Of a stretch of 64,000 nt of DNA, positions 13,880-32,130 are shown one piece after another. Under the pieces are notes generated by a model. That model did not search any database. It saw nothing but the letters and a program-made list of their open reading frames with translations, and was not told the DNA's origin. How positions within the stretch are numbered: the first letter of the stretch is position 1; each line of letters opens with the position of its first letter. The position numbers and the translations under genes are program-made. The DNA comes from Roseovarius sp. (GTDB lineage: Bacteria; Pseudomonadota; Alphaproteobacteria; Rhodobacterales; Rhodobacteraceae): positions 117,360 through 181,359 of the forward strand of contig JAOSKR010000003.1 of assembly GCA_027493545.1 (NCBI GenBank), written 5' to 3'.

Positions 13880-14490
13880 GACCCATCCCCGATCATCGCG
13901 GCCGCCTCGGCGCAGGTCATCACGCGGGTGACCGAGCCCAGCGAGATCAACGTCGCCTCGTGCACCTCGTCGCTGAAGGCGGCGCAGCCATCCGACAGCA
14001 GGATCGTCCCGATGCCGCGCAGATGCGCGTCGCGCACGGTGCTGGCGACGCCGCCATTGGTGACGATGCCGCCGATGATCAGCGTATCGACCCCGATCGC
14101 GCCCAGAACCCATTCCAGCCGGGTCTGGTAGAAGGCGGAATAGTTGATCTTCTCGACAGTGAAATCGGCCGGTTTCAGCGCATCGACAAGGTCGTGACCG
14201 AAGGCGCCCGGCTCGAAATCGCCGCGCGTCAGGAACGGCCGCAGCGCCTTGAGGTGCGGCGCGATCAGCGGCTCCCCCCGGGGGCGCGGGACCAGCGTGA
14301 ACTGGGCCGAGACATAGTGCCCGCCGTGCCCGCGCAGCGCCGCGATCACCGGCGCGATGCGGCCGGGCAGGGGCGCGATCGCGGGCGAGGACTGGCCGGC
14401 CCGGCCGTAGGCGCCCTGCGGGTGAAGGAAATCGTTCTGCAGGTCAATCGTCAGCACCGCGCTGCGGCCGGGATCGAAGGTGTCGCTCAT
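13876..14490 (-). CDS. isochorismatase-family cysteine hydrolase (amidase-like)
   Basis: MSDTFDPGRSAVLTIDLQNDFLHPQGAY...TLIIGGIVTNGGVASTVRDA... (D-K-C type family blocks). ATGA overlaps on both sides. Confidence 0.8.
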   Translation of the reverse strand: MSDTFDPGRSAVLTIDLQNDFLHPQGAYGRAGQSSPAIAPLPGRIAPVIAALRGHGGHYVSAQFTLVPRPRGEPLIAPHLKALRPFLTRGDFEPGAFGHDLVDALKPADFTVEKINYSAFYQTRLEWVLGAIGVDTLIIGGIVTNGGVASTVRDAHLRGIGTILLSDGCAAFSDEVHEATLISLGSVTRVMTCAEAAAMIGDGS

Positions 14491-16547: not shown

Positions 16548-18238
16548 CGGGCCACCTCTTTCCATCCGGCACCATAGCTGGCGGTTGCGGCCTCGGCGCT
16601 GAGATAGCCGGCGGCGACATCGCGGGCCACGGCCTCGGGCGGGCGTTCGCTGGCCGGGCCGTAGCCGCCTCCGCCCGGGGTCTCCAGCCGCACCGAGTGG
16701 CCACCATCGAGCCGGATGCCGCGCATCTTCGATGCCAGCGGCGGATGGTGCCAGCCATCGGCCTGCTCGAAGGAAAAGACGTTGAGCGCCGCGTCGCCGC
16801 CGCCCGCCACCCCCTTGGGGGCAAAGCGGCCGCGCTCGCCGAAGAGAAACGCCTCGGCGCCGTTCTCTTCCAGCACCTCGATCTCGTAGATCGCGCCGAG
16901 ACCGCCACGGTGCCGGCCGGCGCCGGCGCTGTCGGGGCGCAGCGCCCATTGCCGGAACATCACCGGATAGGCCGCCTCGAGGATTTCCAGCGGCGGGATG
17001 GTGGCGGTCGAGATCGGGGCGTTGCCGTGGTTGAGCCCGTCCGAATCGGACGAACCGCCATGCCCGCCGCCGTAGAAGCTGAACATCACCCAGGGGCTGC
17101 CGTCCGAGCGCCGCCCGGCGATCGAAAGCGCGTTGATGGTACCATAGGCGTTGGCGACCACGCGCTCGGGCGCGGCCTGAGCGGCTGCGGCAAAGATCAC
17201 GTCGATCATGCGCAGGATGGTCTCGGTATAGCCGCCGGTGGGCTTTGGAAACTCGGCCGCGAGCAGCGATCCCTCGGGGATCCGTACCTCGATCGGGCGC
17301 ATCACCCCGGCATTGGCAGGCAGCGACGGGAAGATGTGCTTGATCGCCACATAGGCGGTCGCCACCGCCGTCGGCAGCGCGATATTGACCGGGCCCTGCG
17401 TCACCGGCGCGGTGCCCTCGAAATCGAGCACCATGCGGTCCCCCTTGATCTCCAGCGCCACGCGGATCGGCAGCGGCGTGTCGGTGATGCCGTCATTGTC
17501 GAGGAAATCCCCGGCTTCCCAGCGGCCGTCAGGCAGCGCCGACAGCTCGGCCCGCATCAGCGTCTCGGCCCGCCGGCCCATCGCGTCGAGCGCGGCCGCG
17601 ACGGTTTCGGCGCCGTATTCGTCGAGTACCGAGTCGAGACGGCGCACGCCGAGATCGAGCGCGTTCATCTGCCCGTTCAGGTCACCCGTCGCCGACTGCG
17701 GCAGGCGGGTGTTGCGCATGATGATGTCGATGATGTCGGGCTGCACCTCGCCGGCCCGAACCAGCCGCACCGGCGGCAGCACGAACGCCTCCTGGAACGC
17801 CTCGGTCGCCGCCGGATTGTAGTTGCCCGGAACGTTGCCGCCGACATCGTGCCAGTGCCCGACGCTGGCGAGGTAGCAAAAGAGCTTGCCGTCGCGGAAA
17901 TAGGGCCGCACCAGGCGCATGTCCGACAGGTGGGTGCCGCCGATATGGGCATCGTTGAAGATCCACACGTCGCCGTCGTTCAGCTCGCCGCGCTCGGCGG
18001 CCTTCTCGATCACCGCCTTGACCGCAAAGGCCATGACGCCGACAAAAATCGGCAGCCCGGACTTGCCCTGCACCAGCGTATCGCCGGTCTCGGCGTGATA
18101 AAGCCCGTGGCTGGCGTCATGCGCCTCGGCGATGATCGGGTTGAAGGCCGAGCGGAACAGCGTCGCGTCCATCTCGTCGGCGATCTGCTCCATCCGGCCG
18201 GTCAGCACGGCCAGGGTGATCGGGTCGATCTCAGTCAC
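16544..18238 (-). CDS. hyuB: hydantoinase B / oxoprolinase-family subunit
   Basis: GTG start at 18238 (GTGA overlap with the upstream stop). VTEIDPITLAVLTGRMEQIADEMDATLFRSAFNPIIAEAHDAS...GGHGGSSDSDG...GGGGYGP... is typical HyuB. Confidence 0.85.
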   Translation of the reverse strand: MTEIDPITLAVLTGRMEQIADEMDATLFRSAFNPIIAEAHDASHGLYHAETGDTLVQGKSGLPIFVGVMAFAVKAVIEKAAERGELNDGDVWIFNDAHIGGTHLSDMRLVRPYFRDGKLFCYLASVGHWHDVGGNVPGNYNPAATEAFQEAFVLPPVRLVRAGEVQPDIIDIIMRNTRLPQSATGDLNGQMNALDLGVRRLDSVLDEYGAETVAAALDAMGRRAETLMRAELSALPDGRWEAGDFLDNDGITDTPLPIRVALEIKGDRMVLDFEGTAPVTQGPVNIALPTAVATAYVAIKHIFPSLPANAGVMRPIEVRIPEGSLLAAEFPKPTGGYTETILRMIDVIFAAAAQAAPERVVANAYGTINALSIAGRRSDGSPWVMFSFYGGGHGGSSDSDGLNHGNAPISTATIPPLEILEAAYPVMFRQWALRPDSAGAGRHRGGLGAIYEIEVLEENGAEAFLFGERGRFAPKGVAGGGDAALNVFSFEQADGWHHPPLASKMRGIRLDGGHSVRLETPGGGGYGPASERPPEAVARDVAAGYLSAEAATASYGAGWKEVAR

Positions 18239-18798
18239 AAGGCACCTTTCGTTTCGGCGAGGTCGTTCCAGACGTCCTGTCTGACGATCAGCCCGCCGGT
18301 CAGCTCGAATCGGTCGACAAACCGGATGCCGGCGAAGGGTGTGCCGTCGGGCCAGTGGCCCGAGAGCGTGCCCCGGCAATAGACAACCGTGGCATCGCCA
18401 TCCTGGCAGGCGTCGAACCCGGCATAGACCTTGGCGATGTCGCGGTAGCGGGTGCGCGCCTGGTCGACGAGGTCCGACAGGCGCGTCATCGGCGCGGCGC
18501 CGGGGAAATGCATGGTGAAACCCTCGCCCAGGAACGCGCCCGCAGCGTCGAGGTCGCGGGCGGCCATGGCGTCGAGAAAGGCGCGCACGGTGTCGACCGG
18601 GTCCGGCAGGACGGGGGCGGGGCTGCGGGCGATGCCGCCGCGGATGTAATTGCCCGGTGCGGCCTCGCGGGTGATGACGGTCACCAGATCGGCCGGTGCC
18701 GGCACGACCATGCGCACCGCATCGGTTACGGCCCGCGCGAGACGTGTCCGCACGTCTGTGTCGTAGCCCTCTATCAAAGTGATCTCGACGACCGGCAT
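18235..18798 (-). CDS. fusion protein: 4-oxalocrotonate-tautomerase-like domain + SnoaL/NTF2-like domain; first gene of the operon
   Basis: ATG at 18798 is preceded by GGAGGGGA. MPVVEITLIEGYDTDVRTRLARAVTDAV is the Pro-1 tautomerase motif. It is followed by VDTVRAFLDAMAARDLDAAGAFLGEGF...FVDRFELTGGLIVRQDVWND, which is NTF2-like. Confidence 0.7.
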   Translation of the reverse strand: MPVVEITLIEGYDTDVRTRLARAVTDAVRMVVPAPADLVTVITREAAPGNYIRGGIARSPAPVLPDPVDTVRAFLDAMAARDLDAAGAFLGEGFTMHFPGAAPMTRLSDLVDQARTRYRDIAKVYAGFDACQDGDATVVYCRGTLSGHWPDGTPFAGIRFVDRFELTGGLIVRQDVWNDLAETKGAL

Positions 18799-18840
18799 GA
18801 AATCCCCTCCAAAACCTGTCATACGAAAGATACCGAAATC

Positions 18841-18871
18841 GGGCAATATAAATTTGCATTTCATGATTGCC
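18841..18871. promoter_or_regulatory. candidate GntR/HutC operator in the divergent promoter region
   Basis: Perfect 7-bp inverted repeat GGGCAAT (18841-18847) / ATTGCCC (18865-18871) around an AT-rich spacer. It lies between the divergent starts at 18798 (-) and 18938 (+). Confidence 0.35.
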
Positions 18872-18937
18872 CAAGTAACAATCCCACTCAACGCCAGCCT
18901 GGCGCTGGTTTCCAGAGGAACACCAACCGGGATCGCC

Positions 18938-19759
18938 ATGGACAAGAACGGCCCTCATTCATCGCCCGGCGGCGGCAAGTTCACCCTGCCCGAGGGTGGG
19001 AAATCGCGCCGGGTTTTCCTGTTGCTGCGCGACGCCATCGCCGGCGGCCAGTACCCCGCCGACAGCCTTCTGCCCAGCGAACAGCGGCTGGCGGCAATGC
19101 ACGACGTCTCGCGCGTGACCGTCCGCCGCGCGCTCGATGCGCTGGCCGCCGACGGGCTGATCGAGAAGCGGGCCGGCGCGGGCTCGGCGGTGCGTGCGGC
19201 GGTGCCGGCCATGGCCGCAGACATGACGACCTTCATCCCGCAGATCGTGGCGATGGGCCGGCAGACCGAGGTCCGGCTGCTGTCGTTTTCCTATGACGAG
19301 GCACCGCCGCAGGTGGCCGCGGCGCTGAAGCTGGCCAGGGGCGCGCTGGTGCAGCGGGCAGTGCGCATCCGTCTGGTGCGCGGGCGGCCCTTTTCGCACC
19401 TGACCACCTTCGTTCCCGAGGCGATCGCGAGCAACTTCTCCGAGGCCGATCTGGCCAACACGCCGCTCTTCGAGTTGCTCGAGCGTGGCGGCGCGCGTAT
19501 CGAATCGGCACGGCAATCCGTGACCGCGGCACTGGCCACGCCCGAGGTGGCGCCGGCGCTCGGGGTCTCGGTGGGCTCGGCGCTGCTGGCGCTGACACGG
19601 ACGGTCTACGACGATGCCGGGCGCGGGATCGAGTATCTGTCGGCGCTCTATCGCCCCGACCTCTTCCGGCTCGACATGGCCATGGCTCGCGTCGGCACCG
19701 GCGGCGGCCGCCAGTGGCAGCCCGTCATCGGCGGGGCAAGCGAGGAGACACCGTCATGA
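18938..19759 (+). CDS. GntR-family (HutC/UTRA subfamily) transcriptional regulator
   Basis: MDKNGPH...LLPSEQRLAAMHDVSRVTVRRALDALAADGLIEKRAGAGSAV (winged HTH) followed by a UTRA-like C-terminal domain. Its stop overlaps the leuC-like start (ATGA). Confidence 0.8.
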   Translation: MDKNGPHSSPGGGKFTLPEGGKSRRVFLLLRDAIAGGQYPADSLLPSEQRLAAMHDVSRVTVRRALDALAADGLIEKRAGAGSAVRAAVPAMAADMTTFIPQIVAMGRQTEVRLLSFSYDEAPPQVAAALKLARGALVQRAVRIRLVRGRPFSHLTTFVPEAIASNFSEADLANTPLFELLERGGARIESARQSVTAALATPEVAPALGVSVGSALLALTRTVYDDAGRGIEYLSALYRPDLFRLDMAMARVGTGGGRQWQPVIGGASEETPS

Positions 19760-21761: not shown

Positions 21762-21920
21762 GGCTCGGCCCCTCCCGCCACCGGCCCGCGCCGAAAAAGC
21801 CGAGACCGCGCGCCCCATCGTTCGACGCCTCCGGGGGCGATTTCGGACGTGCTGGTTGGCACGCCCTGGCCCGGTCAGGAAAACGCAGCCAAATCGGTCC
21901 AGCCCGAGCCCGCACGCCAA

Positions 21921-22333
21921 TCAATTCGCAACATTGGCGGCCAGTTCGCGGGGCATGTAGTCTTCGTCGTGCTTGGCGAGGATCTCGCTCGCCTGGAACT
22001 GGCCGTTCACCAGCCGCCCGGTGGCGATCGCCCCCTCGCCCTCGGCGAAGAGGTCGGGGAGCAGACCGCCATAGACCACTGGCATCGAGCTTTCGCCATC
22101 GGTAAGGCGGAAGGAGACCGCCGTGCCGTCGCGCAGCAGGCTGCCAGCCTCGACCATGCCGCCGAGACGGAAAGTCTCGCCCGGACCCGGCGCGTCGGCG
22201 GGGTCTGCGACGGCGTGCGGAAGAACCGGATGCCGTCGCGCATTGCGTGCCCGATCATCGCGGTCGAGAGCGCAAGCGCCAGCGCCGCCACGGCCAGCAG
22301 CCGGATGCGGCGGGACTTGTGCAGCCGGCTCAT
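21921..22333 (-). pseudogene. ccmE: cytochrome c maturation haem chaperone CcmE, one frameshift
   Basis: The N-terminal anchor [43 protein letters not shown] is in ORF 22007..22333. The OB-fold part ...GETFRLGGMVEAGSL...ILAKHDEDYMPRE (haem-binding His in KHDE) is in ORF 21921..22358. The junction is near 22210. Confidence 0.8.
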
Positions 22334-23610
22334 CCCGACAAGCCCGATGCACGGGCAAAGGGCAGTTGCAACTCGCGCCAGCAGCGCGCCAGTGCCGTCA
22401 CCAGATCGTCCATCATCTCGTCGTCATGCAGCGGCGTGGCGGTGATGCGCAGCCGCTCGGTCCCGCGTGGAACCGTGGGATAGTTGATCGGCTGGAGGTA
22501 GATCGCGTGTTCGCCAAGAAGCCGGTCGCAAAGCGCCTTGCACCGCGCCGCATCGCCGACGATCACCGGGACGATATGGCTGGGGGCGTCGAGAAACGGG
22601 ATGCGCTCGCTGGCAAGAAGCCGCCGCAACCGCGCGGCGCGCTCGTGCAGCGCGGCGCGCTCGCGGCCGCTCCGGCGCAGATGCCGCACCGATGCCAGCG
22701 CCCCGGCGGCGACCGCGGGCGGAACTGCGCTGGTAAAGATGAAACCGTTGGCGTGGCTGCGGATCGCATCGATGATGGAACGGTCCGCCGCGACATAGCC
22801 GCCGATCACGCCATAGGCCTTGGCGAGCGTTCCCTGGACGATGTCGATTTCGCCGGCCACGCCGTCGCGCTCGGCGACGCCCGCGCCGGTAGGGCCGTAC
22901 ATGCCCACCGCATGCACCTCGTCGAGATAGGTGAGCGCGCCATGCTCACGGGCAATCTCGACGATCTCGCCGATGGGCGCGATGTCGCCGTCCATCGAAT
23001 AGACCGATTCGAAGGCGATGATCTTGCAACGCTCGCGCGGCAGCCCCAACAGCAGTTCGTGCAGGTGATCGAGGTCGTTATGACGGAAGATGCGCTTTTC
23101 CGCGCGGCTGGTCAGCACGCCCTGAATCATGGAGGCGTGGTTGAGCTCATCCGACAGGATCACGCAATCGGGCAGCAGCCGGCCCAGCGTGGCCAGCGTG
23201 GCGAGGTTGGCGAGATAGCCGCAGCCGAAGACCAGCGCGCCGGGCTTGCCGTGCAGCATCGCCAGTTCACGTTCCAGCGCGACGATGGGTCCGTGATTGC
23301 CCGAGATGTTGCGGGTGCCGCCCGCGCCCGCCCCGAAATCGTCGATGGCCTCCTTCATCGCCTGGCGCACGCCGGGGTGCTGGCCCATGCCGAGATAGTC
23401 GTTCGAGCACCAGACGGCGATGCGCCGTTCCTCGGCGCCTGCGATGGCCATCGACCATGGAAAGCTGCCGACGATCCGGTTGTGCTCCTGAAAGACACGA
23501 TAGCGCCCTTCCTCGACCAACCCGTCGACCGAGCCCTGCAACAGTGCAAGGTAATCGGGCGTGGCCCCCTCCGGGTCGTTCGCCCCCATCCGCAGGACAG
23601 TCGTGTTCAT
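22330..23610 (-). CDS. hemA: 5-aminolevulinate synthase (PLP-dependent, HemA/HemT type)
   Basis: ATG at 23610 follows GGAGGAAGG. ...[17 protein letters not shown]...[14 protein letters not shown]...SMDGDIAP...GTLAKAYG...TATPLHDD... ATGA overlaps with ccmI upstream and ccmE downstream. Confidence 0.85.
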
Positions 23611-24581
23611 GGCCTTCCTCCCGTGGTTCCGCCGGTAATGTCGATCATCTCGAGCATGGAGCGCACCCGCGCCGTCGCCGGGTGTTCCGGCGCCAGCCGG
23701 ACCGCCAGCCATTCCAGATCGGCCCGAGCCGCATCGGGCCGGGCCAGTCTCAGATTGAGCAGGGCGCGATACCAATGCGCCTCGGCCAGATCCGGGGCGG
23801 CAGCCAGCACCGCCCCGACCTGGTCGAGAAGCTCGGCGGCAGGCGGCGCATCGGGCGTCTCGATCACCATGCGCAGATAGTTCATGCGAAATTCCAGATC
23901 GTCGGGATACTGCTCCGCCGCCGCAGCGAGCACCTCGGGCGCTTCCGCCTCCCGGCCCAGCACGCCATAGCTGCGCAGGAGCATCCGGTAGTCGTCGGAC
24001 GTCGCCGCGCCGTCGCGAACACGTGCCTCCAGCCGGGCGACCATCGCGCCGATATCGGGCGCGCCGTCGGCGGTCATCGGCATGTCGGGTGGCAGGGCAG
24101 GGGCCGCGGCGGAGGGTGCCTCGATGGGAATGCGGCCATCGGCATGGGGCGAGACGGTCATGTCGATGTCATTCCAGGATGCGGCGCGGCTCACGCCGAA
24201 GGCCGCCGCGGCAACGCAGAGCATCGTGAGGGCCGAGCCGATGCGCCCCGGCATCCGCGCTTGGGGGCCGTCGACGGGGTCGAACGCGTCGCGCGCGCGG
24301 CGCAGCGCCTCGAGCGCGGTCTCGGCCTCGGCGGCAAGGTGGCGATTGTTGAGCCCGTGCGCGGCCTGGTCAATTCGGCCTTCGGCCAGCGCCATGTCGT
24401 TCTCGCGCAACTGCCCGGTCAGGCGGTCCTTCTCGACCTGCCAGCGGTCCACGGGGTCGCGGCTCTCCACGCCGCGGCCGAGCGCACGGTTGGCCGCCGG
24501 GCGAAAGAGCGGCAGCGCCACAAGACCCGCTGTCAGCAGCACGAGGCCGATGGCCATAATCGCGGGAACGGTCATCGTCAT
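23607..24581 (-). CDS. ccmI: cytochrome c-type biogenesis protein CcmI (CycH)
   Basis: [26 protein letters not shown] (TM) ...[26 protein letters not shown]... A second TM is followed by a TPR-like C-terminal region. ATGA overlaps on both sides. Confidence 0.7.
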
Positions 24582-25021
24582 GGTTCCAACTCCTCGAGCC
24601 GCGCTTCGGTCAGCTGGGCATGGGTCTCCGGGGTGTCCTTCCCGGGGCCGCGCAGCCGGTACACCAGCAACAGCGCGAGCCCCGCGCCGCCGATCACCAG
24701 AAGTACGGGGACCAGCCAGATCACGGCTCCGGGTCCGGTCGATGGCGGCGAGAGCAGCACGTAATCGCCGTAGCGCGCCCGGAAGAATGCCATGATCTGC
24801 GCGTCCGAGCGCCCCTCGATCACCTGCTCGCGCACCAGTTCCAGCATCTCGCGCGCGGTGCCGGAATGGGAGTCGAGGATGTTTTCGCTCTGGCAGACCG
24901 GACAACGCAATCCGGTGGCGACGGCGCGCACGCGCGCCTCGGCGGGATCCTCGCCGACCAGACGCCCGGCCCAGAGCGGCGCCGCGGTCAGCGCCAGAAC
25001 GAAGGCCAGCACGAGCCTCAT
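24578..25021 (-). CDS. ccmH: cytochrome c-type biogenesis protein CcmH (CycL)
   Basis: MRLVLAFVLALTAAPLWA signal followed by LRCPVCQSENILDSHSGTAREM (the LRCxxCQ motif) and a C-terminal TM. Confidence 0.85.
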   Translation of the reverse strand: MRLVLAFVLALTAAPLWAGRLVGEDPAEARVRAVATGLRCPVCQSENILDSHSGTAREMLELVREQVIEGRSDAQIMAFFRARYGDYVLLSPPSTGPGAVIWLVPVLLVIGGAGLALLLVYRLRGPGKDTPETHAQLTEARLEELEP

Positions 25022-25578
25022 GGCGTCACCCCGATCCGTGGCATCGCCTCGGCGAGGACGGCAGCGGTGAGCGGGCCGGCGTGACGCATCCGCACGATGC
25101 CCCCGGCGTCGATGAAGAACGTCTCGGGCATTCCGTAGACGCCGAAATCTATGCCGAGCCGTCCCCTCGGGTCGTGACCCGATGGATAGGGAAAGCGGCC
25201 CTCCCGCGCGAGATAGGCGGCGGCCCTGTCGGGGTCGTCGCGATAGTTGATGCCGGCGATCCGAAAGGCGCCGCTGGTCTCGCTGAACTGGCCCAGACGA
25301 ATGAGTTGAGCATGTTCCTGCCGGCACGAGGTGCACCAGGATGCCCAGAAATTCAACACCAGCGGCTCTCCCGCCAGATCGGCCGAGCGCAGCACCCCCT
25401 CGCGCTCGAGATAGGCGATCTCGAAGGCGGGCATCGGCTGGCCCACGAGCGCCGAGGGCAGTCGGCCGGGCTCACGCGTGAGGCCGATGGCCAGAAGCCC
25501 CAGCAGCGCCAGCGCCGCCGCGCCGAGGGCGTAGCGCCAGCGTGCCGGGCGTCTTGGGGACTGCGTGACGTCGGTCAT
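25018..25578 (-). CDS. ccmG: periplasmic thiol:disulfide oxidoreductase CcmG/DsbE
   Basis: N-terminal anchor followed by LVLNFWASWCTSCRQEH (thioredoxin CxxC) and GVYGMPETFFID. Confidence 0.85.
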   Translation of the reverse strand: MTDVTQSPRRPARWRYALGAAALALLGLLAIGLTREPGRLPSALVGQPMPAFEIAYLEREGVLRSADLAGEPLVLNFWASWCTSCRQEHAQLIRLGQFSETSGAFRIAGINYRDDPDRAAAYLAREGRFPYPSGHDPRGRLGIDFGVYGMPETFFIDAGGIVRMRHAGPLTAAVLAEAMPRIGVTP

Positions 25579-27587
25579 TGCGCGGGTACTCCCCTGGCCT
25601 GTGGTGCGGGTCGGCGCGTGCAAACCCCAACCATGCGGGTGCGTTCGGTCAGCGACAGCGCCGCGCCCGCCAGCACCACCGCCCAGCCGATCCAGATCCA
25701 CGACACGAGCGGGTTCCAGAAGAGGCGCGCGATCAGCCGCCCGTCTGCGGACTCATCGCCCATCACGGCATAGAGATCGCCCCAGGCTTGCGGCCGGAGC
25801 GCAACCTCGGTGGTGGTCATGGCGCGGATCGGATAGAATCGCTTTTCGGGACGCAACTCGAAAAGCGGACGGCCGTCCCCGGCGACGCTGAAGGTCGCGC
25901 GCCGGCCCTGATAATTGGGCATGTCGATGTCGGCGATGCCGCGCAGGGTGATGACATGGCCCGCGATCTCGACGGAATCGCCGCGCCGCATCTCGACCGT
26001 CGCCTGGCTCTGGAAAAGGCCCGAGCCGATCATGCCCACCGCGATCAAAACCATGCCCAGATGCACGATCAGCCCGCCGAAACGGCGGCGCGACCGGCTC
26101 AGCACCATGCCCGCCGCCCGCGCCCACGCGACCCCGCCCGAGCGGCGCCGCGCCGCGACGGCGAGCGACATGTCGGTGAGGATGGCGGTGGCGGCAAAGA
26201 CCGCTCCGGCGATCGACAGCAGCGTGAGCGGCGCGCGAATGCCCAGGCCGAGTCCGGCGGCAAGCGCTGCCGCGGCGAGCGCGAAGGGCAGCCGGAAATG
26301 CCGCAGGAACCGCGCGGAGGTCATGCCGCGCCAGGGGATCGACGGGCCGATCCCCATCAGGAAGAGGAGCGCCACCATCACCGGCGCAACGACCTTGTTG
26401 AAGTAGGGTGCCCCGACGCTGAGTTTCTGACCCGTCACCACCTCGACCGCCAGCGGGAACAGGGTACCGATGAAGACCACCGCGGTGACGACCAGCAGAA
26501 GCACCGAATTGGCGAGGATCGCGGTCTCGCGCGACAGGGCGCCTTCGAGCCTGGCTTCCGACTCGAGCATCGTGGCGCGCCAGATGATCAGCCCGTAGCC
26601 GGCGGTCATCGCCAGTGCGAGAAAGCCCAGCATGTAGGCCCCGCGCCCCGGATCGACGGCGAAGGCATGGACCGAGGTCAGAACGCCGGAACGCACCAGA
26701 AAGGTGCCCAGCAGTGTCAGCAGGAATGTTGTCACCACGAGAAAGACGTTCCAGCTGCGAAACATCCGGCGCTTTTCCTGCACCATCATCGAATGCAGCA
26801 GCGCCGTGCCCGCGAGCCACGGCATCAGCGACGCGTTCTCGACCGGATCCCAGGCCCAGTAGCCGCCCCAGCCGAGCTCGTAATACGCCCAGTAGCCGCC
26901 GAAGATGATCCCCGAGGTCAGCGCCGTCCGGGCAAAGAGCGTCCAGCGGCGCACGGCCGTCACCCATTCGTGTCCGACCTGCCCGCGGATCAGCGAGGCG
27001 ATGGCGAAGGCGAAGGGCACGGCAAATCCGACATAGCCCAGGTAGAGAACCGGCGGATGGAAGGCGAGGCCCGGATCCTGCAGCAGCGGGTTGAGGTCGC
27101 GGCCGTTCGCCGGGACGGGCGTCAGGCTCGCGAAGGGGTTGGAAAGCAGCAGGATGAAGGCCAGGAACCCGGCCTGAATCGCGGCCAGTGTCGCGATGAT
27201 CCACGGCATCGACAACGGATGCTCGCGCCAGTGCAGCCAGAGCGCGGCGGCGGTGAAGAGCGAAAGGTACCACGCCCAGAGCAGCAGCGAGCCCTCATGC
27301 GCGCCCCACATCGCGGTGAACCGGTAGAGCAGCGGCAGTTCGAGATTGCTGTTTTGAGCCACATAGGCGACCGAGAAATCCGAGATCACGAAGGCATGGA
27401 TCAACGTCGCGGCGCCGGCGCTGAGAAGCGCAAGATTGGCGAACATGGCGTTGCGGGCCGCAACCAGGCGCGCGGGGGCGCACTGACGCACCGAAAGCAC
27501 CGCCCGGGCGATGGCAAAGACACAGAGCACCAGCGCGAGGCCCGCCGCCAGTTGCCCCAGTTCGGCGAGTGTCAGCGTCATGGACAT
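25575..27587 (-). CDS. ccmF: cytochrome c haem lyase subunit CcmF
   Basis: 670 aa within ORF 25575..27716. Polytopic, with the WGGYWAWDPVEN (WWD) motif and conserved His-containing loops. ATG at 27587. Confidence 0.9.
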   Translation of the reverse strand: MSMTLTLAELGQLAAGLALVLCVFAIARAVLSVRQCAPARLVAARNAMFANLALLSAGAATLIHAFVISDFSVAYVAQNSNLELPLLYRFTAMWGAHEGSLLLWAWYLSLFTAAALWLHWREHPLSMPWIIATLAAIQAGFLAFILLLSNPFASLTPVPANGRDLNPLLQDPGLAFHPPVLYLGYVGFAVPFAFAIASLIRGQVGHEWVTAVRRWTLFARTALTSGIIFGGYWAYYELGWGGYWAWDPVENASLMPWLAGTALLHSMMVQEKRRMFRSWNVFLVVTTFLLTLLGTFLVRSGVLTSVHAFAVDPGRGAYMLGFLALAMTAGYGLIIWRATMLESEARLEGALSRETAILANSVLLLVVTAVVFIGTLFPLAVEVVTGQKLSVGAPYFNKVVAPVMVALLFLMGIGPSIPWRGMTSARFLRHFRLPFALAAAALAAGLGLGIRAPLTLLSIAGAVFAATAILTDMSLAVAARRRSGGVAWARAAGMVLSRSRRRFGGLIVHLGMVLIAVGMIGSGLFQSQATVEMRRGDSVEIAGHVITLRGIADIDMPNYQGRRATFSVAGDGRPLFELRPEKRFYPIRAMTTTEVALRPQAWGDLYAVMGDESADGRLIARLFWNPLVSWIWIGWAVVLAGAALSLTERTRMVGVCTRRPAPQARGVPAQ

Positions 27588-29076
27588 GACACGACCTCGG
27601 CGTCGCTCATGCAGGCGGCGAGGGCGGCGATCGCGTACCGGATGGTCCTTTCGTCGATCGCCGCATAACCCAGCAGGAGATGGCCGCGGTGGCGGCGGTT
27701 GTCGGGCGAGATCCACGAGCCGCCCGAGCCGGGCCGGTAGACGCCGATGCGCCGGAGCGCCGCGCGTCTTTCCAGCCGCGTCGCGTCGGCACCGCCGCCG
27801 GGCAGCCGCAACGACAGGTGCATTCCCGCGCGGTGGCCGAAGGTGGGCGCATCGGGGAAATGCAGTGCCAATTCGGACAGGAGCGTGTCACGGCGGCTCA
27901 TGTAGAGCGCCCGGATGCGCCGCAGGTGCCGCCGGAAACCGCCGCAGGCCATGAACTCGCCCATCGCCGCCTGTTCCAGCCAGGGCGCGCAGTTGCTGCT
28001 GAGCTGCTTCCAGCGCTTCAGCAGCACCACCACCCCCCGGCGAGGCGATGACGAAGCCCAGCCTCAGCCCTGGCCCGATGGACTTGGAAAAGGTGCCGAG
28101 ATAGATCACCCGCCCGGTCCGGTCGAGCCCGCGCAGCGCAGTGAGCGGCGCCCCCTCGTAGCGGAACTCGCCGTCATAGTCGTCCTCGATGATCAGGCTG
28201 TCCGTCCGCTCGGCCCAGTCGAGCAGCGCCAGGCGGCGTTCCAGTGTCATGGTCATGCCGATCGGATACTGGTGCGAGGGGGTGACATAGAGCAAGGAGG
28301 GGCCGCGTTCGGGCAGCCGTTCGACCTCGATTCCCTGCGCGTCCACCGGAACCGGCGTGCAGGTCCAGCCGGTGCCGTGAAAGGCGAAGCGTGCGCCCTG
28401 ATAGCATGGATCCTCGTGCAGGAAGGTGTTGCAGTGATGCCCGAACGCCTGTGCGATCAGCGTGAGCCCGTCCTGCGAGCCGCCGACGATGACGATATCC
28501 TCGGGGTCGGCGGGAATGCCGCGCGCGGGTCCGATGTGATCGGCGATGGCCTGCCGCAGCACCGGCAGGCCCTGCGGGTCTCCATAGGACGACAGCTGCG
28601 GCGCAACCGTAGCGCAGCTTGGTGTCGAGAATGCGCCGCCACTCGCGTGCGGGAAACGATTTGGGTTCGACCTTGCCGATCCAGAAATCCACCTGCATCC
28701 GCGCGCCATCGGGGTTGGTCACCGATTGCACCTCGGGCAGCGGCGCCAAGGGCGCCGTGAAGGGGGACGGACGGAGCGCCGGATCGGGCACCAGCGCAAG
28801 ACGGCCCGACGCCCGCATCGCCGCGTCGGGGAGATTGGAGCTGACGAAGGTGCCGACGTTCGCGCGGCTCTCGATGTAGCCCTCGCTCAGCAGCTTCTCG
28901 TAGGCGATGATGACGGTGTTGCGCGATACGCCCAGCTGTTCGCTGAGCGCGCGCGACCCCGGCATCGGATCGCCGCTGCGCAGCTTGCCATCGAGGATCA
29001 GCCGCTTGACCGCATCGAAGACCTGGGTCTGAAGCGTGCGCGTGTCATCGGGGTCAATCGTGAGAACGACCTGCAT
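27578..29076 (-). pseudogene. MocR-type regulator (GntR wHTH fused to a PLP-dependent aminotransferase-like domain), two frameshifts
   Basis: The wHTH ...PMPGSRALSEQLGVSRNTVIIAYEKLLSEGYIESRANVGTFV is in ORF 28174..29172 (ATG 29076). The aminotransferase-like body is in ORF 27888..28709 (...YGDPQGLPVLRQAIADHI...GTFSKSIGPGLRLGF...). The tail is in ORF 27578..28033. Junctions are near 28615 and 28030. The 3' end overlaps the ccmF start by 10 nt. Confidence 0.8.
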
Positions 29077-29125
29077 TGCCGGAACCTCCTCCGGTCCCAT
29101 GCTATCACGATGTCGGGAGTTTTTC

Positions 29126-29145
29126 ATGATTCCGGGATGAATCAT
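29126..29145. promoter_or_regulatory. inverted repeat upstream of the MocR-type regulator (candidate operator)
   Basis: ATGATTC-cgggat-GAATCAT (arms 29126-29132 and 29139-29145) lies about 50 nt upstream of the ATG at 29076, in the only AT-richer spot of the 114-nt gap between haoB and the regulator. Confidence 0.25.
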
Positions 29146-29190
29146 TTCCATGAGTCCGCCACGGGTCCGCATCGGGCGGCTTGCGGCGCG

Positions 29191-30211
29191 TCACAGCCCG
29201 GCCGTGGTGGGTTCCAGACGGTACACCCAGTAGCCGCCGGTCTGATAGACCAGCCTTGTGCCGGGTACCTGCCCGATGGCGGCCGAGTCGAATGGCAGGA
29301 GCTGACCCAGCAGGGTGCTCTTGTCGCGCGCGTCCGACAGGACATAGGCCCGGATCGTATCGCCGCCGCGGCGCTCGACGGCATAGGCGGCGTGGCCCTC
29401 GGCCGCGACCCAGTCCTTGACCGCGCGGGACTTGTCATGCGCGATGCCCGCGGCAGGAAAGTCGCGCTGCCCGACATGGATCCGGTCCGGGGCGTTCAGC
29501 CCGATGTCGAAAATGTCGCGGACATGCACGATCACATAGCCTGGCCGTGCCCCGCCAAGCGCCCGCAGCCGGGCGGCGCCGTAGATGTCTTCGGCCAGCA
29601 GCGCGTCGATCAGCACCGTGAAGGCCTCACCCGGCTCCCCCGCGACGCGCGATGCGGCCGGTTCCGCGTGCCAGCGTGCCTCGGTCCGTGTCACGGCGGC
29701 CTCGGTTCCGGTCCGGGGCGGGCAGGCGCAGAGCCGCCTGCGCCGCCGCCCCGGCCAGCGGGAACTCGGCCGGAATGAAATGCGCCAGCCGCTCCGAGAG
29801 CGCGGGCATGGCGATCACCGTGCTGCCTTCGGGCAGATGCTTGCGCAGCGCGCTGGCCAGCGCCAGCTCTTCCTGCGCGGAAACGTCCGAACGCAGGACC
29901 GGCTCGGGTGCCCGGCTCCGCCAGCCGACGATCACCTCGGCGCCATCGGTCATGGTGACGATCTCGGCGGTGGCGACGGCGCGATCGGGCTCGGTCGTCC
30001 GCAATTCGAGAGACGAGGCCACGGCGCCGGGCACCAGCTCCGCAAGCTTCACCGCGGCCTCCGACGGGGCCTCGGCGCCCGCCTCGTAACGATAGGGCGG
30101 CAAATCGGCGGCCGGTACCGACCAGCGCGCGGTGCCCCAGAGCGCCGCCCCGCCCAGACCCGCGAACGCCGCGATCGCGGCCGTGGATGTCACCAGACTC
30201 CGTCTTGTCAT
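29191..30211 (-). pseudogene. haoB: HaoB-like (hao orf2-like) anchored periplasmic protein, one frameshift; assignment is by position and topology only
   Basis: ORF 29627..30211 (MTRRSLVTSTAAIAAFAGLGGAALWG anchor/signal) and ORF 29191..29694 overlap by 68 nt. Both have natural-looking sequence only on one side of about 29715, which implies a single ~340-aa product directly downstream of haoA. Confidence 0.45.
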
Positions 30212-30274
30212 GTCTTCGCCTCCCGCGAGAAAAACCCCGGCCCGGGGGGCCGGGGATGTCTGCCGGTGCCCCGG

Positions 30275-31855
30275 TCACTCGGGGCTTTCGAGCTTGCGGA
30301 TCCGCTCCAGTATCGCGGCCTTCTCTCGCAACTGGGTGTCGGCATCGCGGATGCGGATCCCCTGGCGGAGCAGATGCGACCAGGCATTGGTGTAGGTGAA
30401 GCCACCCGGGTTGGCATGGGCCACGCCCTTGAAGACGCTCATCAGGCGTTGTTCCCACATCTCGGTGAACTCGTAGTCGATCGCCGAAGGGTTGTTGCCG
30501 TCGGCCCAGAAGAGCGAGTAGAAACCACCGGGAGCATCCTTGGCCGGCTCCGGCGGCAACGGACGGTTGGTGGTCTGGCCCACCAGCAGCTTGTCGTCAT
30601 AGAGAGCCTGCATGACCGTGCGCGCCTCTTCCACTTCGTCGACCGCATCGATCGTGACCTGGTCGATGATCTCGAAGTAGCTGCGGGCGAAGCTGTCGGA
30701 ATGGCACTGGCCGCAGGTCGCGATCCAGGATTCCTTGCGGCCCTCGAACCATTCATGCCCGAGATTGTCGGCGATGGATTTCATCGGCTGGAACCCCCAG
30801 CGGACCTTCTGAACGAGGTTGTGGCCGTACTCGCCGTCCTTCTCGAAGTGGCAGGTCTGGCAGGTCGGGCCGGTCTGGCCGCCCTTCTCGAAGGCTTCCT
30901 TGAGAGGCAGTTCCCAATCCCATTCGTCGCCATGGGCAGTATAGATCACGCCGTGCTTGGACATCATGAAGTTCTCGAACTCGGGGTGATCGACACCGTT
31001 GTGGCAGGTCGAGCAGGCTTCGGGCTTGCGTGCCTCCACGGCCGAGAATTCATGCCGCGTGTGGCAGGAATTGCAGGTGTTCTGCGAGGTGTGACACATG
31101 GTGCAGCCCTCGGCCACCTCGCGTTCCTCCATGCCGGCCCAGATCGCGGTCTCGTAGTTGGCCAGCATCGCGAGCGCGTGCGAAGGCCGCCCGTCGGGCC
31201 ATTGCCCCTGTGGCCAGATCGCGGTGTCACGTTCGGATTCGCGTTCCGCGAACTGCTGTAGATGGCACTGACCGCAATCGCCAGCATCGGGCATGCGCAG
31301 ATCGGTCTTGTGATTGCCGGCCTTGGTGCCGATGCCCATGTGGCAATCGATGCAGCCTACCTCCTCGAGCTGTTCGCCCTCGTTCAGCAGACCCATCGAG
31401 ACCAGGTTGGTCTCGACCTGCGCGATGATTTCCTGCTTGTAGAACCGTGAATCGGCTTCGGTCAGTTCGCGGATTTCGTCGAGGTCGCTGTGGACGCTCT
31501 TTTCCCAGGAATGGACCCAGCCCGGCGTCACCCCCTGGTGACATTCGACGCATTCGCGTGCCGTGACTTCGAAATCCAGGTCGGGCCCCTCGTAGAAGAG
31601 CCCCGGGCTCATGTATTTCGAAAACTCTATCGGCTCCCACAGATCGGCGAAGGCGCCCTTGCTGTAGCCCTGAGCGGGCTCGCGGTAGCGCTTCACGATC
31701 GCCTCGTAGAGCACGTTGGGCGCGGCGTTGCGCTCCAGCCCGAGCGCATCGAACAATTCATCCGGGATTTCAGCCTGCGCAGGCGGCACCAGGGCTGCCA
31801 GCGCCAGACATGCCCCCCCCGCAACGGCTCTCATCCATTCTCCCAAGCCGGTCAT
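30275..31855 (-). CDS. haoA: octahaem cytochrome c, hydroxylamine oxidoreductase (HAO) family
   Basis: 526 aa. Signal peptide ...LVPPAQA/EIP. Eight CxxCH motifs (CVECH, CIDCH, CGQCH, CTMCH, CNSCH, CSTCH, CQTCH, CGQCH). Blocks FAERESERDT, GRPSHAL, REVAEGCTMCHT, CHTRHEFSA, RKPEAC and SKHG read like Nitrosomonas HAO as I recall it. NPGGFTYTNAW retains the cross-link Tyr (codon 30392-30394). Confidence 0.9.
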   Translation of the reverse strand: MTGLGEWMRAVAGGACLALAALVPPAQAEIPDELFDALGLERNAAPNVLYEAIVKRYREPAQGYSKGAFADLWEPIEFSKYMSPGLFYEGPDLDFEVTARECVECHQGVTPGWVHSWEKSVHSDLDEIRELTEADSRFYKQEIIAQVETNLVSMGLLNEGEQLEEVGCIDCHMGIGTKAGNHKTDLRMPDAGDCGQCHLQQFAERESERDTAIWPQGQWPDGRPSHALAMLANYETAIWAGMEEREVAEGCTMCHTSQNTCNSCHTRHEFSAVEARKPEACSTCHNGVDHPEFENFMMSKHGVIYTAHGDEWDWELPLKEAFEKGGQTGPTCQTCHFEKDGEYGHNLVQKVRWGFQPMKSIADNLGHEWFEGRKESWIATCGQCHSDSFARSYFEIIDQVTIDAVDEVEEARTVMQALYDDKLLVGQTTNRPLPPEPAKDAPGGFYSLFWADGNNPSAIDYEFTEMWEQRLMSVFKGVAHANPGGFTYTNAWSHLLRQGIRIRDADTQLREKAAILERIRKLESPE

Positions 31856-31927
31856 GTTTCTCTCCCTTCCGCTTCGGGGCCACGCGCATGGCCTCGCCGG
31901 GCATGATGCCGCAAAGGCGGGATTCCC

Positions 31928-32130
31928 CTAGACCCGACAGGGTGGAAAGATTTGGGTCCGGTGGTTCATCTCCCATGCTCGCCGCTCACGCGGGCCGATC
32001 ACCCGCGCGGTTCGGGCGCACAGGCCTTCGACGCCGCGCAGCGAGAGCGGGAAACGAGTATCCATCATCACCGCAAGGCGGATGACCTCGGGGCTGGTCC
32101 GGAAATGGCGAGGGGGTTGGGCTTGCCCAT
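31928..32130 (-). mobile_element. IS6-family transposase gene remnant (N-terminal ~55 codons, frameshifted and truncated)
   Basis: The reverse strand reads MGKPNP..(shift)..RHFRTSPEVIRLAVMMDTRFPLSLRGVEGL..., resembling the FR.F.TSPE(I/V)IRLAVM.Y.RFPLSLR.VEDLL N-terminus of IS6/IS26-family transposases. Recognisable sequence stops well short of the expected length, about 70 nt before the haoA start. Confidence 0.5.

Follow-up and report, generated by a model that had tools for sequence, protein, structure and literature searches.

The six genes ccmF-ccmG-ccmH-ccmI-like-hemA-ccmE probably form the distal part of a conserved, self-contained and horizontally mobile "HAO production cassette", which would serve the synthesis and maturation of hydroxylamine oxidoreductase (HAO). 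The cassette is carried here by a marine-type alphaproteobacterium. Its gene order is haoA-haoB-mocR-ccmF-G-H-I-hemA-ccmE, and the six ccm and hemA genes make up its distal two-thirds. An earlier sequence-only reading had proposed an accessory module serving HAO, and this proposal was supported; we infer the role in HAO maturation from the linkage. The nine-gene unit as a whole, including haoB and a MocR/PdxR-like regulator gene, had been overlooked, as had a copy in a model organism. Judged from sequence comparison, the operon appears to be real, accessory and dedicated to HAO. The features assigned in the window (the whole 64-kb stretch of DNA that was analysed) were as follows:

31927..31959, minus strand: direct repeat in two parts, GGACCCAAA-N15-GGGTCTAGG, some 70-100 nt ahead of the haoA start codon
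30275..31855, minus strand: haoA, hydroxylamine oxidoreductase, 526 aa, intact
30235..30255, minus strand: GC-rich hairpin with T-run, terminator- or attenuator-like, directly 3' of haoA
29191..30211, minus strand: haoB, 340 aa in relatives, in two frames here
29125..29169, minus strand: direct repeats GGACCCGTG / GGACTCATG / GGAATCATG in the haoB-mocR spacer
27578..29076, minus strand: mocR, MocR-type regulator gene, 498 aa in relatives
25575..27587, minus strand: ccmF, haem lyase core of the CcmF/NrfE family, 670 aa
25018..25578, minus strand: ccmG/dsbE, thiol-disulfide oxidoreductase, 186 aa, motifs WCTSC and GVYGMPET
24578..25021, minus strand: ccmH, 147 aa, PF03918, motif LRCPVCQSE
23607..24581, minus strand: candidate CcmI-like apocytochrome chaperone, 324 aa, weak TPR match only
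22330..23610, minus strand: hemA-type 5-aminolevulinate synthase (ALAS) paralogue, 426 aa
21921..22333, minus strand: ccmE, haem chaperone, 137 aa in relatives, frameshifted here
21801..21817, minus strand: weak hairpin of terminator type roughly 100 nt beyond ccmE, consensus match only

Gene content and integrity of the operon

Five ATGA stop/start overlaps join the six genes on the minus strand, as had been claimed, and appear on the plus strand as TCAT at 25575-25578, 25018-25021, 24578-24581, 23607-23610 and 22330-22333. They are not chance occurrences, since at each of them a family-validated gene stops where the next one starts, and relatives such as L083 show identical 4-nt overlaps. 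A sixth junction was found upstream, where the mocR stop and the ccmF start share 10 nt (ATGTCCATGA, 27578-27587). Downstream, leuD/leuC are the convergent neighbours beyond the hairpin 3' of ccmE.

The gene list of the sequence-only reading stood for the ccmF, ccmG, ccmH, ALAS and ccmE families, while its ccmI label is without sequence-family support. CcmF carries PF01578 and PF16327, scores 586 bits on TIGR00353 (cut-off 569), contains the WWD motif (WGGYWAWDPVEN) and the periplasmic His motifs FHPP and LLHS, and aligns along the whole length with E. coli CcmF at 42% identity. The CcmG product scored 127.8 on TIGR00385 (cut-off 123). The 324-aa protein matched no CcmI or NrfG sequence family, and it is a candidate CcmI by gene position and predicted architecture. 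Its AF2 model (mean pLDDT 84) predicts two TM helices, with a helical hairpin on the cytoplasmic side and an 8-helix TPR domain on the periplasmic side; Foldseek returned only generic TPR folds for the model. The position of an ALAS gene between the CcmI-like gene and ccmE was confirmed: its product scored 593 bits on TIGR01821 (cut-off 339) and matched the ALAS structures 7x98 and 2bwn at E values of 6e-144 and 7e-131. The cassette of lineage L100 is without the ALAS gene, so that ALAS is dispensable at least in L100.

The product of haoA has eight canonical CXXCH motifs, and its cross-link tyrosine is Y488, which aligns to Y467 of N. europaea. The HAO structures 6m0p and 4fas match its residues 29-524 (E about 1e-186 to 1e-190). 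All 11 cassette HAO copies have the eight CXXCH motifs and the cross-link tyrosine, and no CXXCK or CXnCH motif was found in any of the 11. No other coding ORF in the 64 kb bears a CXXCH motif, so that HAO is the sole c-type cytochrome of both the window and the cassette and thus the obvious client of the lyase. The hairpin behind haoA consists of 9 GC pairs followed by TTTTTCTCGC.

The family and overlap of ccmE had been assigned correctly, but the frameshift of this gene in the assembly had been overlooked. The span 21921-22333 is 413 nt long, which is not divisible by three, and, with one base missing at 22198, the N-terminus (ATG 22333) is out of frame with the C-terminus (stop 21921). The Logan assemblies L088 and L091 (99.4-99.5% identical) and L092 (99.7%) have the extra base and encode an intact 137-aa CcmE with the haem-binding His motif LAKHDEDYMP; the intact protein scores 167 bits on NF009731 (cut-off 152). 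Likewise, haoB is split by a 2-nt deletion at 29714, mocR is broken by 1-nt insertions at 28605 and 28033, and the loop of the hairpin behind haoA is two bases short (indel at 30243). The four frame-breaking events within the cassette could be taken as real pseudogenising mutations of a cassette decaying in this strain, which is extremely improbable: every indel of the window lies in a homopolymer (C5-7, G5/6, T4/5), a CCWGG site or a 2-3-base run, a pattern characteristic of long-read consensus errors left uncorrected, and genes outside the cassette are affected as well (32398, 33760, 37896, 40711 and 41009). Moreover, ccmE, haoB and mocR are intact in independent short-read assemblies that are 99.4-99.9% identical, five of which jointly show every affected gene intact. 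Compared with the closest assembly, L090 (99.88% over 18.5 kb), the window had 11 substitutions and 11 gap positions. The ccmE frameshift is almost certainly an assembly error.

Distribution and mobility of the cassette

The cassette was found in Ruegeria pomeroyi DSS-3 (on a megaplasmid), Mesorhizobium sp. Root157, a Yoonia MAG, two other genomes or MAGs, and about ten metagenomic lineages. The R. pomeroyi cassette has apparently been undescribed so far; its hao (Silicibacter pomeroyi) was already known as a non-nitrifier copy (PMC2802487). The flanks differ at each occurrence and sometimes include transposases, and those of the Yoonia cassette carry IS605, IS91 and integrase genes. In hao-less relatives the ccm-hemA order was not seen, and haoA and haoB accompany the ccmFGHI-hemA-ccmE order in all 11 lineages that extend far enough. 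In the subgroup L106 and L108 hao has moved to the other side with the linkage kept.

As had been stated, ccmB, ccmC and ccmD are not in the 64-kb window. They were also not found within 10 kb on either side of any cassette locus, whereas ordinary ccm loci have them. As ccmABCD are always absent from the cassette, the host must supply them. The claim that the gene order is unlike that of ordinary loci held, as none of the ordinary ccm or hemA loci examined shares it. No ccm gene lay in an operon with hemA among the best 80 ALAS loci listed from GTDB species representatives, which are a sample of housekeeping-type loci with the R. pomeroyi cassette copy not among the matches listed; only one of the 80 (L049) has ccmFGH within 10 kb, on the opposite strand. 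Ordinary ccm loci, reached through weak CcmI matches, were ccm(B)C-E-F-G-H clusters that had neither ALAS nor hao.

Each of the cassette proteins ALAS, CcmF and CcmE is monophyletic, with a grouping that does not follow the taxonomy of the hosts. The absence of ccmABCD, the megaplasmid location, the mobile elements flanking the Yoonia copy and the host-incongruent clades point to an accessory set.

Candidate operators and proposed function

The mocR product combines a GntR HTH domain with a PLP aminotransferase-like domain in which the SKS lysine motif is present. The repeat before haoA is a candidate operator of this MocR-like regulator, and the repeats 49-95 nt upstream of the mocR ATG are another. 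The 24-bp-spaced dyad was also seen upstream of haoA in L083, L084, L086, L087 and L091, and the pair before mocR is kept in L083, L086, L087 and L091; in L084 the pattern scan gave no match there, and a looser second half-site, GGTTACA, was spotted by eye. The scan gave 13 matches compared with 2.6 ± 1.7 in shuffled sequences, with a motif that had been built from the very loci that were scanned. Of these 13 matches, 11 fall at the two regulatory regions. The strict form of the dyad occurs only in Rhodobacterales-type loci.

According to the cassette model, the MocR/PdxR-like regulator would act at the similar repeats before haoA and its own gene and switch on haoA and the maturation operon together, and the tight overlaps would couple translation from mocR through ccmE. 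The ALAS paralogue may boost the supply of 5-aminolevulinate and with it haem b, while the CcmABCD proteins of the host would export haem and load the extra CcmE. CcmG and CcmH would hold the CXXCH cysteines of apo-HAO reduced, and the CcmF/H/I-like lyase would attach eight haems per HAO monomer, or 24 per trimer. If this is true, a heterotroph that acquires the cassette makes a very haem-rich periplasmic enzyme independently of the capacity, expression timing and specificity of its housekeeping lyase and ALAS.

That these are simply the housekeeping ccmFGHI/ccmE and hemA genes of the organism, placed beside hao by chance, is very improbable. All of the proteins appear functional, and the 64 kb, the only part of the genome in view, hold no second copy. 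However, the block travels with hao across orders of Alphaproteobacteria, sits on a megaplasmid, and has an arrangement missing from the 80 ALAS loci. Furthermore, the ALAS of the Root157 cassette is 72% identical to that of the window and groups with the Roseobacter-group copies, apart from the eight Mesorhizobium housekeeping ALAS, whose identity to it is about 57% and which make up a separate clade. The CcmI-like family, which amounts to just 57 clusters (at 90% identity) among 5.8 billion proteins, also argues against housekeeping genes. Its small size, sharp bounds and restriction to the cassette context would fit another alternative, a lyase set that is specialised and does not merely add capacity. 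In this case the CcmF/H/I-like proteins, CcmG and CcmE would perform a step impossible for the housekeeping lyase, such as the attachment of the catalytic P460 haem that is later cross-linked to Tyr, or ordered insertion into the trimeric octahaem fold. Substrate-dedicated CcmF/H/I paralogues beside their client have precedents in NrfEFG, which serves CXXCK, and SirEFG, which serves the atypical site of SirA (PMC12285233; PMC6976685). The cassette CcmF, CcmH and CcmG are set apart by a clade of their own or by motif variants specific to the cassette (LRCPVCQSE, GVYGMPET). This alternative is nevertheless decidedly unlikely, as those dedicated lyases serve non-canonical haem motifs while the cassette HAO has only canonical CXXCH, and as it leaves the presence of ALAS and CcmE unaccounted for. 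Moreover, the cassette HAO aligns nearly full length with that of N. europaea. To our knowledge, ammonia oxidisers, including N. europaea, mature the orthologous HAO without a hao-linked dedicated lyase. Like the non-canonical motifs served by the known dedicated lyases, this also counts against the cassette model, as it leaves the need for a dedicated lyase set unexplained.

A link to PLP is possible, if unlikely. PLP enzymes are inhibited by carbonyl reagents, among them hydroxylamine, which forms oximes with pyridoxal phosphate. The PdxR-like MocR protein might thus sense hydroxylamine or PLP depletion at its PLP site, and the extra ALAS, itself a PLP-dependent enzyme, might replace or out-titrate a housekeeping ALAS inactivated by hydroxylamine when HAO needs haem. 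Consistent with this idea, the intact regulator scores 417.6 bits on the NCBIfam PdxR-like equivalog NF052282 (cut-off 320) with its PLP lysine kept, mocR always stands in line between haoB and ccmF, and direct repeats of the MocR type lie ahead of haoA as well as of mocR. On the other hand, the ligand and its binding are entirely conjectural, the PdxR model may only be the nearest broad MocR model (the rhizopine MocR model gives 355 bits, under its own cut-off), and L100 presumably functions without ALAS. The PLP link is also compatible with the cassette model and not exclusive of it.

Comparison with related systems

In E. coli, NrfEFG are the CcmF/CcmH/CcmI paralogues of the nrf operon, and the housekeeping CcmABCDE(G) deliver the haem (PMC12285233). 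In the cassette, too, a second System I lyase set is encoded in the operon of a multihaem nitrogen-cycle enzyme; NrfA and HAO belong to one superfamily. Unlike NrfEFG, which acts on a CXXCK site, the cassette set faces eight CXXCH sites, and the cassette also brings second copies of CcmG and CcmE along with ALAS and a regulator. Its full-length CcmF matches E. coli CcmF better (436 bits, against 271 bits for NrfE) and falls outside the NrfE group, and the TPR protein has a predicted two-TM CcmI architecture, unlike NrfG. In Shewanella oneidensis, SirEFG is a dedicated lyase for the octahaem sulfite reductase SirA alongside the general Ccm (PMC6976685). Here, too, a CcmF-type synthetase and a chaperone are encoded in the cluster of an octahaem cytochrome c, but the site is atypical (CX12NKGCH), the cluster is without ALAS, CcmE and CcmG, and the host is gammaproteobacterial.

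In its haoA-haoB tandem the cassette resembles the hao clusters (haoA-haoB/orf2, with or without cycA-cycB) found in ammonia oxidisers and methanotrophs. The cassette HAO is close to that of N. europaea, with eight haems and the cross-link tyrosine, and HaoB passes TIGR04392 (haoB_nitrify) as in the ammonia oxidisers, the intact L091 copy scoring 258 bits (cut-off 200). Unlike those clusters, the cassette is without cycA and cycB, with no other CXXCH protein in the 64 kb; it adds ccm, hemA and mocR, and resides in heterotrophic Alphaproteobacteria with no amo/pmo nearby.

In the photosynthesis gene cluster of Rhodobacteraceae, hemA adjoins puhE (PMC6052148). The gene was also observed in such a cluster on a Thalassococcus plasmid. 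The hemA and hemT genes of Rhodobacter are pathway-linked ALAS paralogues. Both the photosynthesis cluster and the cassette thus have an extra ALAS in a cluster whose products use much tetrapyrrole, although the sink is bacteriochlorophyll in the former and would be haem c for one enzyme in the latter, where overlaps tie the ALAS gene into a ccm operon and would link its translation to that of its neighbours. Compared with ordinary System I (ccmABCDEFGH(I); rhizobial cycHJKL), the cassette has the same families and catalytic motifs and the same F-G-H-I order as ccmABCDEFGH(I) operons, but it is without ccmABCD, its ccmE is displaced to the end behind the inserted ALAS gene, and its proteins form separate clades.

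Gene content and assembly quality of the ccm-hemA block

The minus strand of the window holds six genes from 21921 to 27587. These genes and their matches to family models are as follows.

25575-27587, minus strand: CcmF/NrfE-family haem lyase of 670 aa, with PF01578 (Cytochrom_C_asm) and PF16327 (CcmF_C); TIGR00353, 586 bits vs 569
25018-25578, minus strand: DsbE/CcmG thioredoxin-like protein; TIGR00385, 127.8 vs 123
24578-25021, minus strand: CcmH; PF03918
23607-24581, minus strand: 324-aa protein (CcmI-like); sub-threshold TPR match
22330-23610, minus strand: 5-aminolevulinate synthase (ALAS); TIGR01821, 593 bits vs 339
21921-22333, minus strand: CcmE; span of 413 nt in two frames

The five ATGA stop/start overlaps described in the sequence-only reading were recovered position for position. 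Moreover, a sixth junction was found, at which the stop of the upstream MocR-type gene and the start of ccmF share 10 nt (ATGTCCATGA, 27578-27587). CcmF carries the WWD motif as WGGYWAWDPVEN and its periplasmic histidines in FHPP and LLHS. The motifs LRCPVCQSE of CcmH, WCTSC and GVYGMPET of CcmG (GVYGMPETF in the window), and LAKHDEDYMP with the haem-binding histidine of CcmE were kept in all copies of the cassette. For the window ALAS, the sister enzymes BioF, Kbl, and SPT scored far below their own cut-offs (next-best BioF 336, <426; Kbl 294). Crystallised bacterial ALAS aligned end to end (7x98, E 6e-144, residues 20-416; also 2bwn), and the PLP lysine of GTLAKA was aligned between the window ALAS and 7x98. 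The N-terminus of the cassette ALAS is about 18 residues longer than that of housekeeping ALAS, whose start lies at about the equivalent of residue 19. A 419-aa version was apparently called by NCBI (P0134), as compared with 22330-23610 (minus strand) in the window.

The 324-aa protein had been labelled CcmI. It gave no NCBIfam match to the CcmI/NrfG family models, its sole Pfam match was a sub-threshold TPR_9, and BLASTP showed no similarity to the C-terminus of E. coli CcmH or to NrfG. CcmI, as in Rhodobacter, has two N-terminal TM helices around a cytoplasmic loop, followed by a periplasmic TPR domain. The AlphaFold (AF2) model of the 324-aa protein (44 family members, mean pLDDT 84) places two TM helices (5-26 and 113-137) on either side of a cytoplasmic helical hairpin (42-100), and the second helix is followed by a linker and an eight-helix periplasmic TPR domain (177-316). 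Foldseek with this model returned generic TPR folds, and no CcmI or NrfG structure was among the top matches. The gene was directly 3′ of ccmH in every case. Furthermore, the family comprised 57 clusters (90% identity) with E 1e-26 or better in 5.8 billion proteins, beyond which generic TPR proteins were reached. The label is thus supported by the modelled two-TM/TPR architecture and by the position after ccmH but not by a sequence-family match, and the protein is predicted to be CcmI-like by position and topology.

The CcmE identity of 21921-22333 also stood, as the intact protein scored 167 against the NF009731 cut-off of 152. Its frame, however, is not continuous, since the N-terminus (ATG at 22333) and the C-terminus lie in different frames. 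In addition, haoB is broken once and mocR twice in the window. Exact-protein look-ups led to five independent Logan short-read assemblies (L088-L092) of near-identical populations, with 99.4-99.9% identity to the window, and the sequences were compared base by base. The ccmE (137 aa), haoB (340 aa), and mocR (498 aa) genes were intact in these assemblies wherever the contig covered the gene. The window indels (1-2 nt) were located at 22198, 28033, 28605, 29714, and 30243 within the cassette and at 32398, 33760, 37896, 40711, and 41009 outside it. All of them sit in a homopolymer, a CCWGG (Dcm-like) site, or a 2-3-base run, and the comparison with the closest assembly gave 11 gap positions and 11 substitutions.

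To judge from these alignments, the indel pattern is what uncorrected errors in a long-read consensus typically leave and not biology, and ccmE, haoB, and mocR were therefore treated as intact. Programmed frameshifting or pseudogenisation of ccmE was rejected, as the base-by-base comparison favours assembly error. Decay of the cassette in this strain is disfavoured and very improbable, both the intact genes in the short-read assemblies and the sequence context of the indels being against it. ORF-level readings of the window, such as split genes, should allow for systematic 1-2-nt indels. Elsewhere in the window (14487-18958, minus strand), the frames of hydantoinase/oxoprolinase A and B (14487-17492 and 16544-18958) run on one strand and share about 400-950 nt, which is probably another assembly-indel effect or the result of long upstream open frames.

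The nine-gene cassette in other genomes

The ALAS homologues were split into two groups, a tight set with 64-85% identity and the alphaproteobacterial housekeeping mass with 63% or less. An exact-sequence look-up returned no match for the window ALAS or the Roseovarius spongiae ALAS. The neighbourhood of every tight-set ALAS with a readable contig was haoA-haoB-mocR-ccmF-ccmG-ccmH-(314-324-aa protein)-ALAS-ccmE. The carriers of this cassette are listed below.

Carriers of the nine-gene cassette, with flanking genes
Mesorhizobium sp. Root157
NCBI MAG (L083): rhodanese; ScsC
Yoonia MAG: IS605, IS91, integrase
1.1-Mb JGI contig
The window's own population: FrsA-like hydrolase; leuD/leuC
Ruegeria pomeroyi DSS-3 megaplasmid NC_006569, SPO_RS20840 to SPO_RS20800 (ccmF to ccmE, SPO_RS20825 to SPO_RS20800): hisD; truncated haemoglobin and cbb3 oxidase

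Metagenomes scanned with a CcmI-like protein alignment yielded about ten more lineages. The conserved block stops exactly at haoA and ccmE, and the flanking genes vary between carriers. When the region was searched against plasmids, megablast gave short gene-level matches, and the protein-mode search gave the DSS-3 megaplasmid. Variants of the cassette were also found. The order in the divergent subgroup L106, L108, and L109 is mocR-ccmFGHI-hemA-ccmE, with haoA-haoB downstream of ccmE where the contigs reach (in the same orientation in L108, inverted in L106). At L100 (10700-11250), ccmI is followed by about 450 nt and then ccmE with no ALAS gene, which makes this locus a natural ALAS-minus variant. 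In Yoonia, genes for IS605 OrfB, DDE transposases, an IS91-family transposase, and a phage-type integrase lie on either side of the cassette (L084 1-1192 and 11898-13508; L085 11834-13759), which is consistent with recent mobility.

In unbootstrapped NJ trees, the 12 core cassette ALAS formed one long-stemmed clade with all 80 housekeeping sequences outside it. The cassette ALAS of Mesorhizobium Root157 joined the Roseobacter-group copies and was well separated from the housekeeping ALAS of eight Mesorhizobium loci. Close to the Root157 cassette, a gene for a 405-aa aminotransferase was considered as a second ALAS and rejected. The cassette CcmF and CcmE were each monophyletic with the variant group included, and the CcmF clade lay apart from alphaproteobacterial housekeeping CcmF (L049, a housekeeping-type locus), E. 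coli CcmF, and E. coli NrfE. The ALAS pair of L106 and L108 fell outside the core cassette clade, while their CcmF and CcmE fell inside the cassette clades; either replacement of the ALAS in the L106/L108/L109 subgroup or poor resolution of the tree may account for this.

The ALAS scan of GTDB representatives served as a negative control, in which the best 80 loci among the matches listed were used. All of the listed matches were housekeeping-type with at most 62% identity, and the R. pomeroyi cassette copy was not among them, so that these loci are a sample of housekeeping loci and not a census. None of these best 80 among the listed matches had ccm genes in an operon with hemA. Weak matches to the CcmI-like protein led to ordinary ccm(B)C-E-F-G-H clusters, in which hao and ALAS were both absent. 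Hence the gene order was not seen in hao-less relatives within this sample, in line with the sequence-only reading, and hao was present in 11 of the 11 cassette lineages whose contigs extend far enough. On these comparisons the cassette ccm-hemA set is best read as accessory rather than housekeeping, and the alternative that these are plain housekeeping genes is disfavoured.

The earlier remark that ccmABCD are missing from the window was borne out for ccmB, ccmC, and ccmD, as a search found no CcmB, CcmC, or CcmD homologue there. None was present within 10 kb on either side of any cassette locus either, whereas ordinary ccm loci have them. Without CcmABCD, which form the haem-delivery half, the cassette is an incomplete System I and must use the CcmABCD of the host. 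Since CcmE cannot be loaded in System I without CcmABCD, the carriers must hold at least the CcmABCD part of the housekeeping system elsewhere.

The HAO, the MocR-type regulator and candidate control sites

An eight-haem hydroxylamine oxidoreductase (HAO) had been proposed near the operon, and eight CXXCH motifs were indeed counted in the product of 30275-31855. This gene and the candidate control sites around it are as follows.

30275-31855, minus strand: HAO, intact; matches Nitrosomonas europaea HAO over residues 29-524 with E ~1e-186
31927-31959, minus strand: bipartite direct repeat about 100 nt 5′ of haoA, candidate MocR-type operator
30235-30255, minus strand: hairpin of 9 bp, all GC, then TTTTT, directly 3′ of haoA in the 63-nt haoA-haoB spacer
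29125-29169, minus strand: direct repeats in the haoB-mocR spacer, candidate MocR-type operator

The P460 cross-link tyrosine is present (GGFTY488T, aligned with Y467). All 11 cassette HAOs had the eight canonical CXXCH motifs and the tyrosine, and none of them contained CXXCK, CX3CH, or CX4CH. The HAO is the sole CXXCH-bearing coding ORF in the 64-kb window and likewise the sole one in the cassette. No cycA/cycB-type partners were found nearby, and the remainder of the window encodes unrelated metabolism. With eight c-haem sites, the P460 tyrosine, and close similarity, the predicted product has the features of an oxidative-clade HAO.

The regulator combines an N-terminal GntR wHTH with an Aminotran_1_2 (fold-type I aminotransferase-like) domain, as assigned by Pfam in relatives. 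The intact protein scored 417.6 bits against NF052282 (NCBIfam PdxR-like MocR; cut-off 320), and the PLP-lysine motif TFSKSIGPGLR is kept. These features assign it, by sequence, to the PdxR-like MocR subfamily of GntR regulators, with targets that are only candidates. The repeat on the coding strand reads GGAC(Y)(Y)A..-N15-GG....A with a 24-bp spacing in the Rhodobacterales-type loci L083, L084, L086, L087, and L091. In the haoB-mocR spacer, four of these five loci gave a pattern-scan match, and in L084 the repeat was seen by eye only. The scan gave 13 matches compared with 2.6 ± 1.7 in shuffles, and 11 of the 13 were at the haoA and mocR upstream sites; as the same loci served both to derive and to count the motif, this is a lead and not proof. 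Hyphomicrobiales-type and variant loci have related GG(C/T)ACCA and TATGGnnCCAGG boxes before mocR. The repeat resembles the CTGGACYTAA repeats attributed to the MocR-type TauR of Rhodobacter capsulatus.

Hairpins similar to that at 30235-30255 were visible in the Yoonia and L086 spacers, and the haoA-haoB spacer is 13 nt long in L081 and L083. By terminating in part, the strong hairpin of the window could keep the ratio of haoA to the downstream genes high. Together, the repeats, the regulator, and the hairpin suggest two putative units under common control, haoA(B) and the stretch from mocR to ccmE.

Proposed function and relation to known systems

The best reading of these data, which we consider fairly likely, is a portable cassette for HAO production. 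From the observed linkage, clade structure, absence of ccmABCD, and shared repeats, we infer the following functional steps. The extra ALAS would contribute to the haem supply, and the extra CcmE would receive haem loaded by the CcmABCD of the host. CcmG and CcmH would serve in thiol reduction, and the CcmF/H/I-like lyase would attach eight haems to each HAO. The cassette's own regulator would be a part of this production unit.

Two other explanations concern the lyase and the cofactor chemistry. The lyase may be specialised for one particular step, for instance that of the P460 haem, and this reading is weakened because the haem motifs of the HAO are all canonical. The idea that the lyase is there to serve a non-canonical haem motif was rejected, as only canonical CXXCH occurs in the 11 cassette HAOs. 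A putative PLP-centred logic is attractive: PLP would react with hydroxylamine, the regulator would sense PLP, and the extra ALAS would offset inhibition by hydroxylamine. It is compatible with a portable HAO production cassette. A hydroxylamine-responsive unit, which we regard as rather unlikely, can also be envisaged. The PdxR-like MocR would sense the formation of an oxime with its PLP ligand, or the loss of that ligand, and would switch on haoAB and mocR-ccm-hemA-ccmE via the shared repeats. The ALAS would be embedded because hydroxylamine poisons the PLP-dependent housekeeping ALAS when 24 haems are needed for each HAO trimer. If true, MocR regulators would have a new principle for sensing small molecules, and for the first time an enzyme of haem biosynthesis would be seen drawn into a cytochrome c maturation operon to shield the cofactor supply from the enzyme's own substrate.

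Dedicated CcmF/H/I paralogues next to a multihaem client are known from NrfEFG (PMC12285233) and SirEFG (PMC6976685), where they serve non-canonical haem sites, and dedicated System I lyases have so far been explained by such odd haem-binding motifs. The cassette is similar in that a paralogous CcmF/H/I-type set is encoded with its client cytochrome (11/11 lineages with contigs that reach far enough). It differs in that the HAO has no non-canonical haem motif, and in that CcmE, CcmG, and ALAS are all present in the cassette but absent from NrfEFG and SirEFG. That the cassette CcmF is an orthologue of NrfE was not supported in the NJ tree. As a paralogous lyase set with its own CcmG, CcmE, and ALAS accompanies an enzyme with only CXXCH motifs, a different rationale is indicated, namely capacity, timing, or portability of multihaem production. 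The cassette also resembles the photosynthesis gene cluster, in which an ALAS paralogue is embedded in a tetrapyrrole-consuming gene set (PMC6052148).

The haoA-haoB tandem in S. pomeroyi was noted earlier, in a passage of PMC2802487 that cites Bergmann et al. (2005). No description of the hao-ccm-hemA(-mocR) linkage was found in a full-text literature search whose reach stopped short of two key earlier papers on hao, Bergmann et al. (2005) and Klotz et al. (2008), and none of the relevant genes is listed in the re-annotation supplement of DSS-3. Since the genes have been publicly annotated since the DSS-3 genome, what is new is the recognition of the cassette and of its logic rather than the sequences themselves. 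The results suggest that hao can spread as a plug-and-play unit among heterotrophic Alphaproteobacteria, with implications for how marine and soil bacteria nitrify heterotrophically and detoxify hydroxylamine. Because the identical cassette is carried on the megaplasmid of the genetically tractable R. pomeroyi DSS-3, these hypotheses are directly testable.

In DSS-3, the stretch downstream of the cassette (L087 13765-23641) encodes a group III truncated haemoglobin, a second cbb3 oxidase operon, and an Rrf2-family regulator. A cbb3/NOR-like subunit I, an SCO protein, a formate/nitrite transporter, and a cytochrome c are encoded in the same stretch. This neighbourhood, which is absent from the window, suggests the handling of NO and nitrite.
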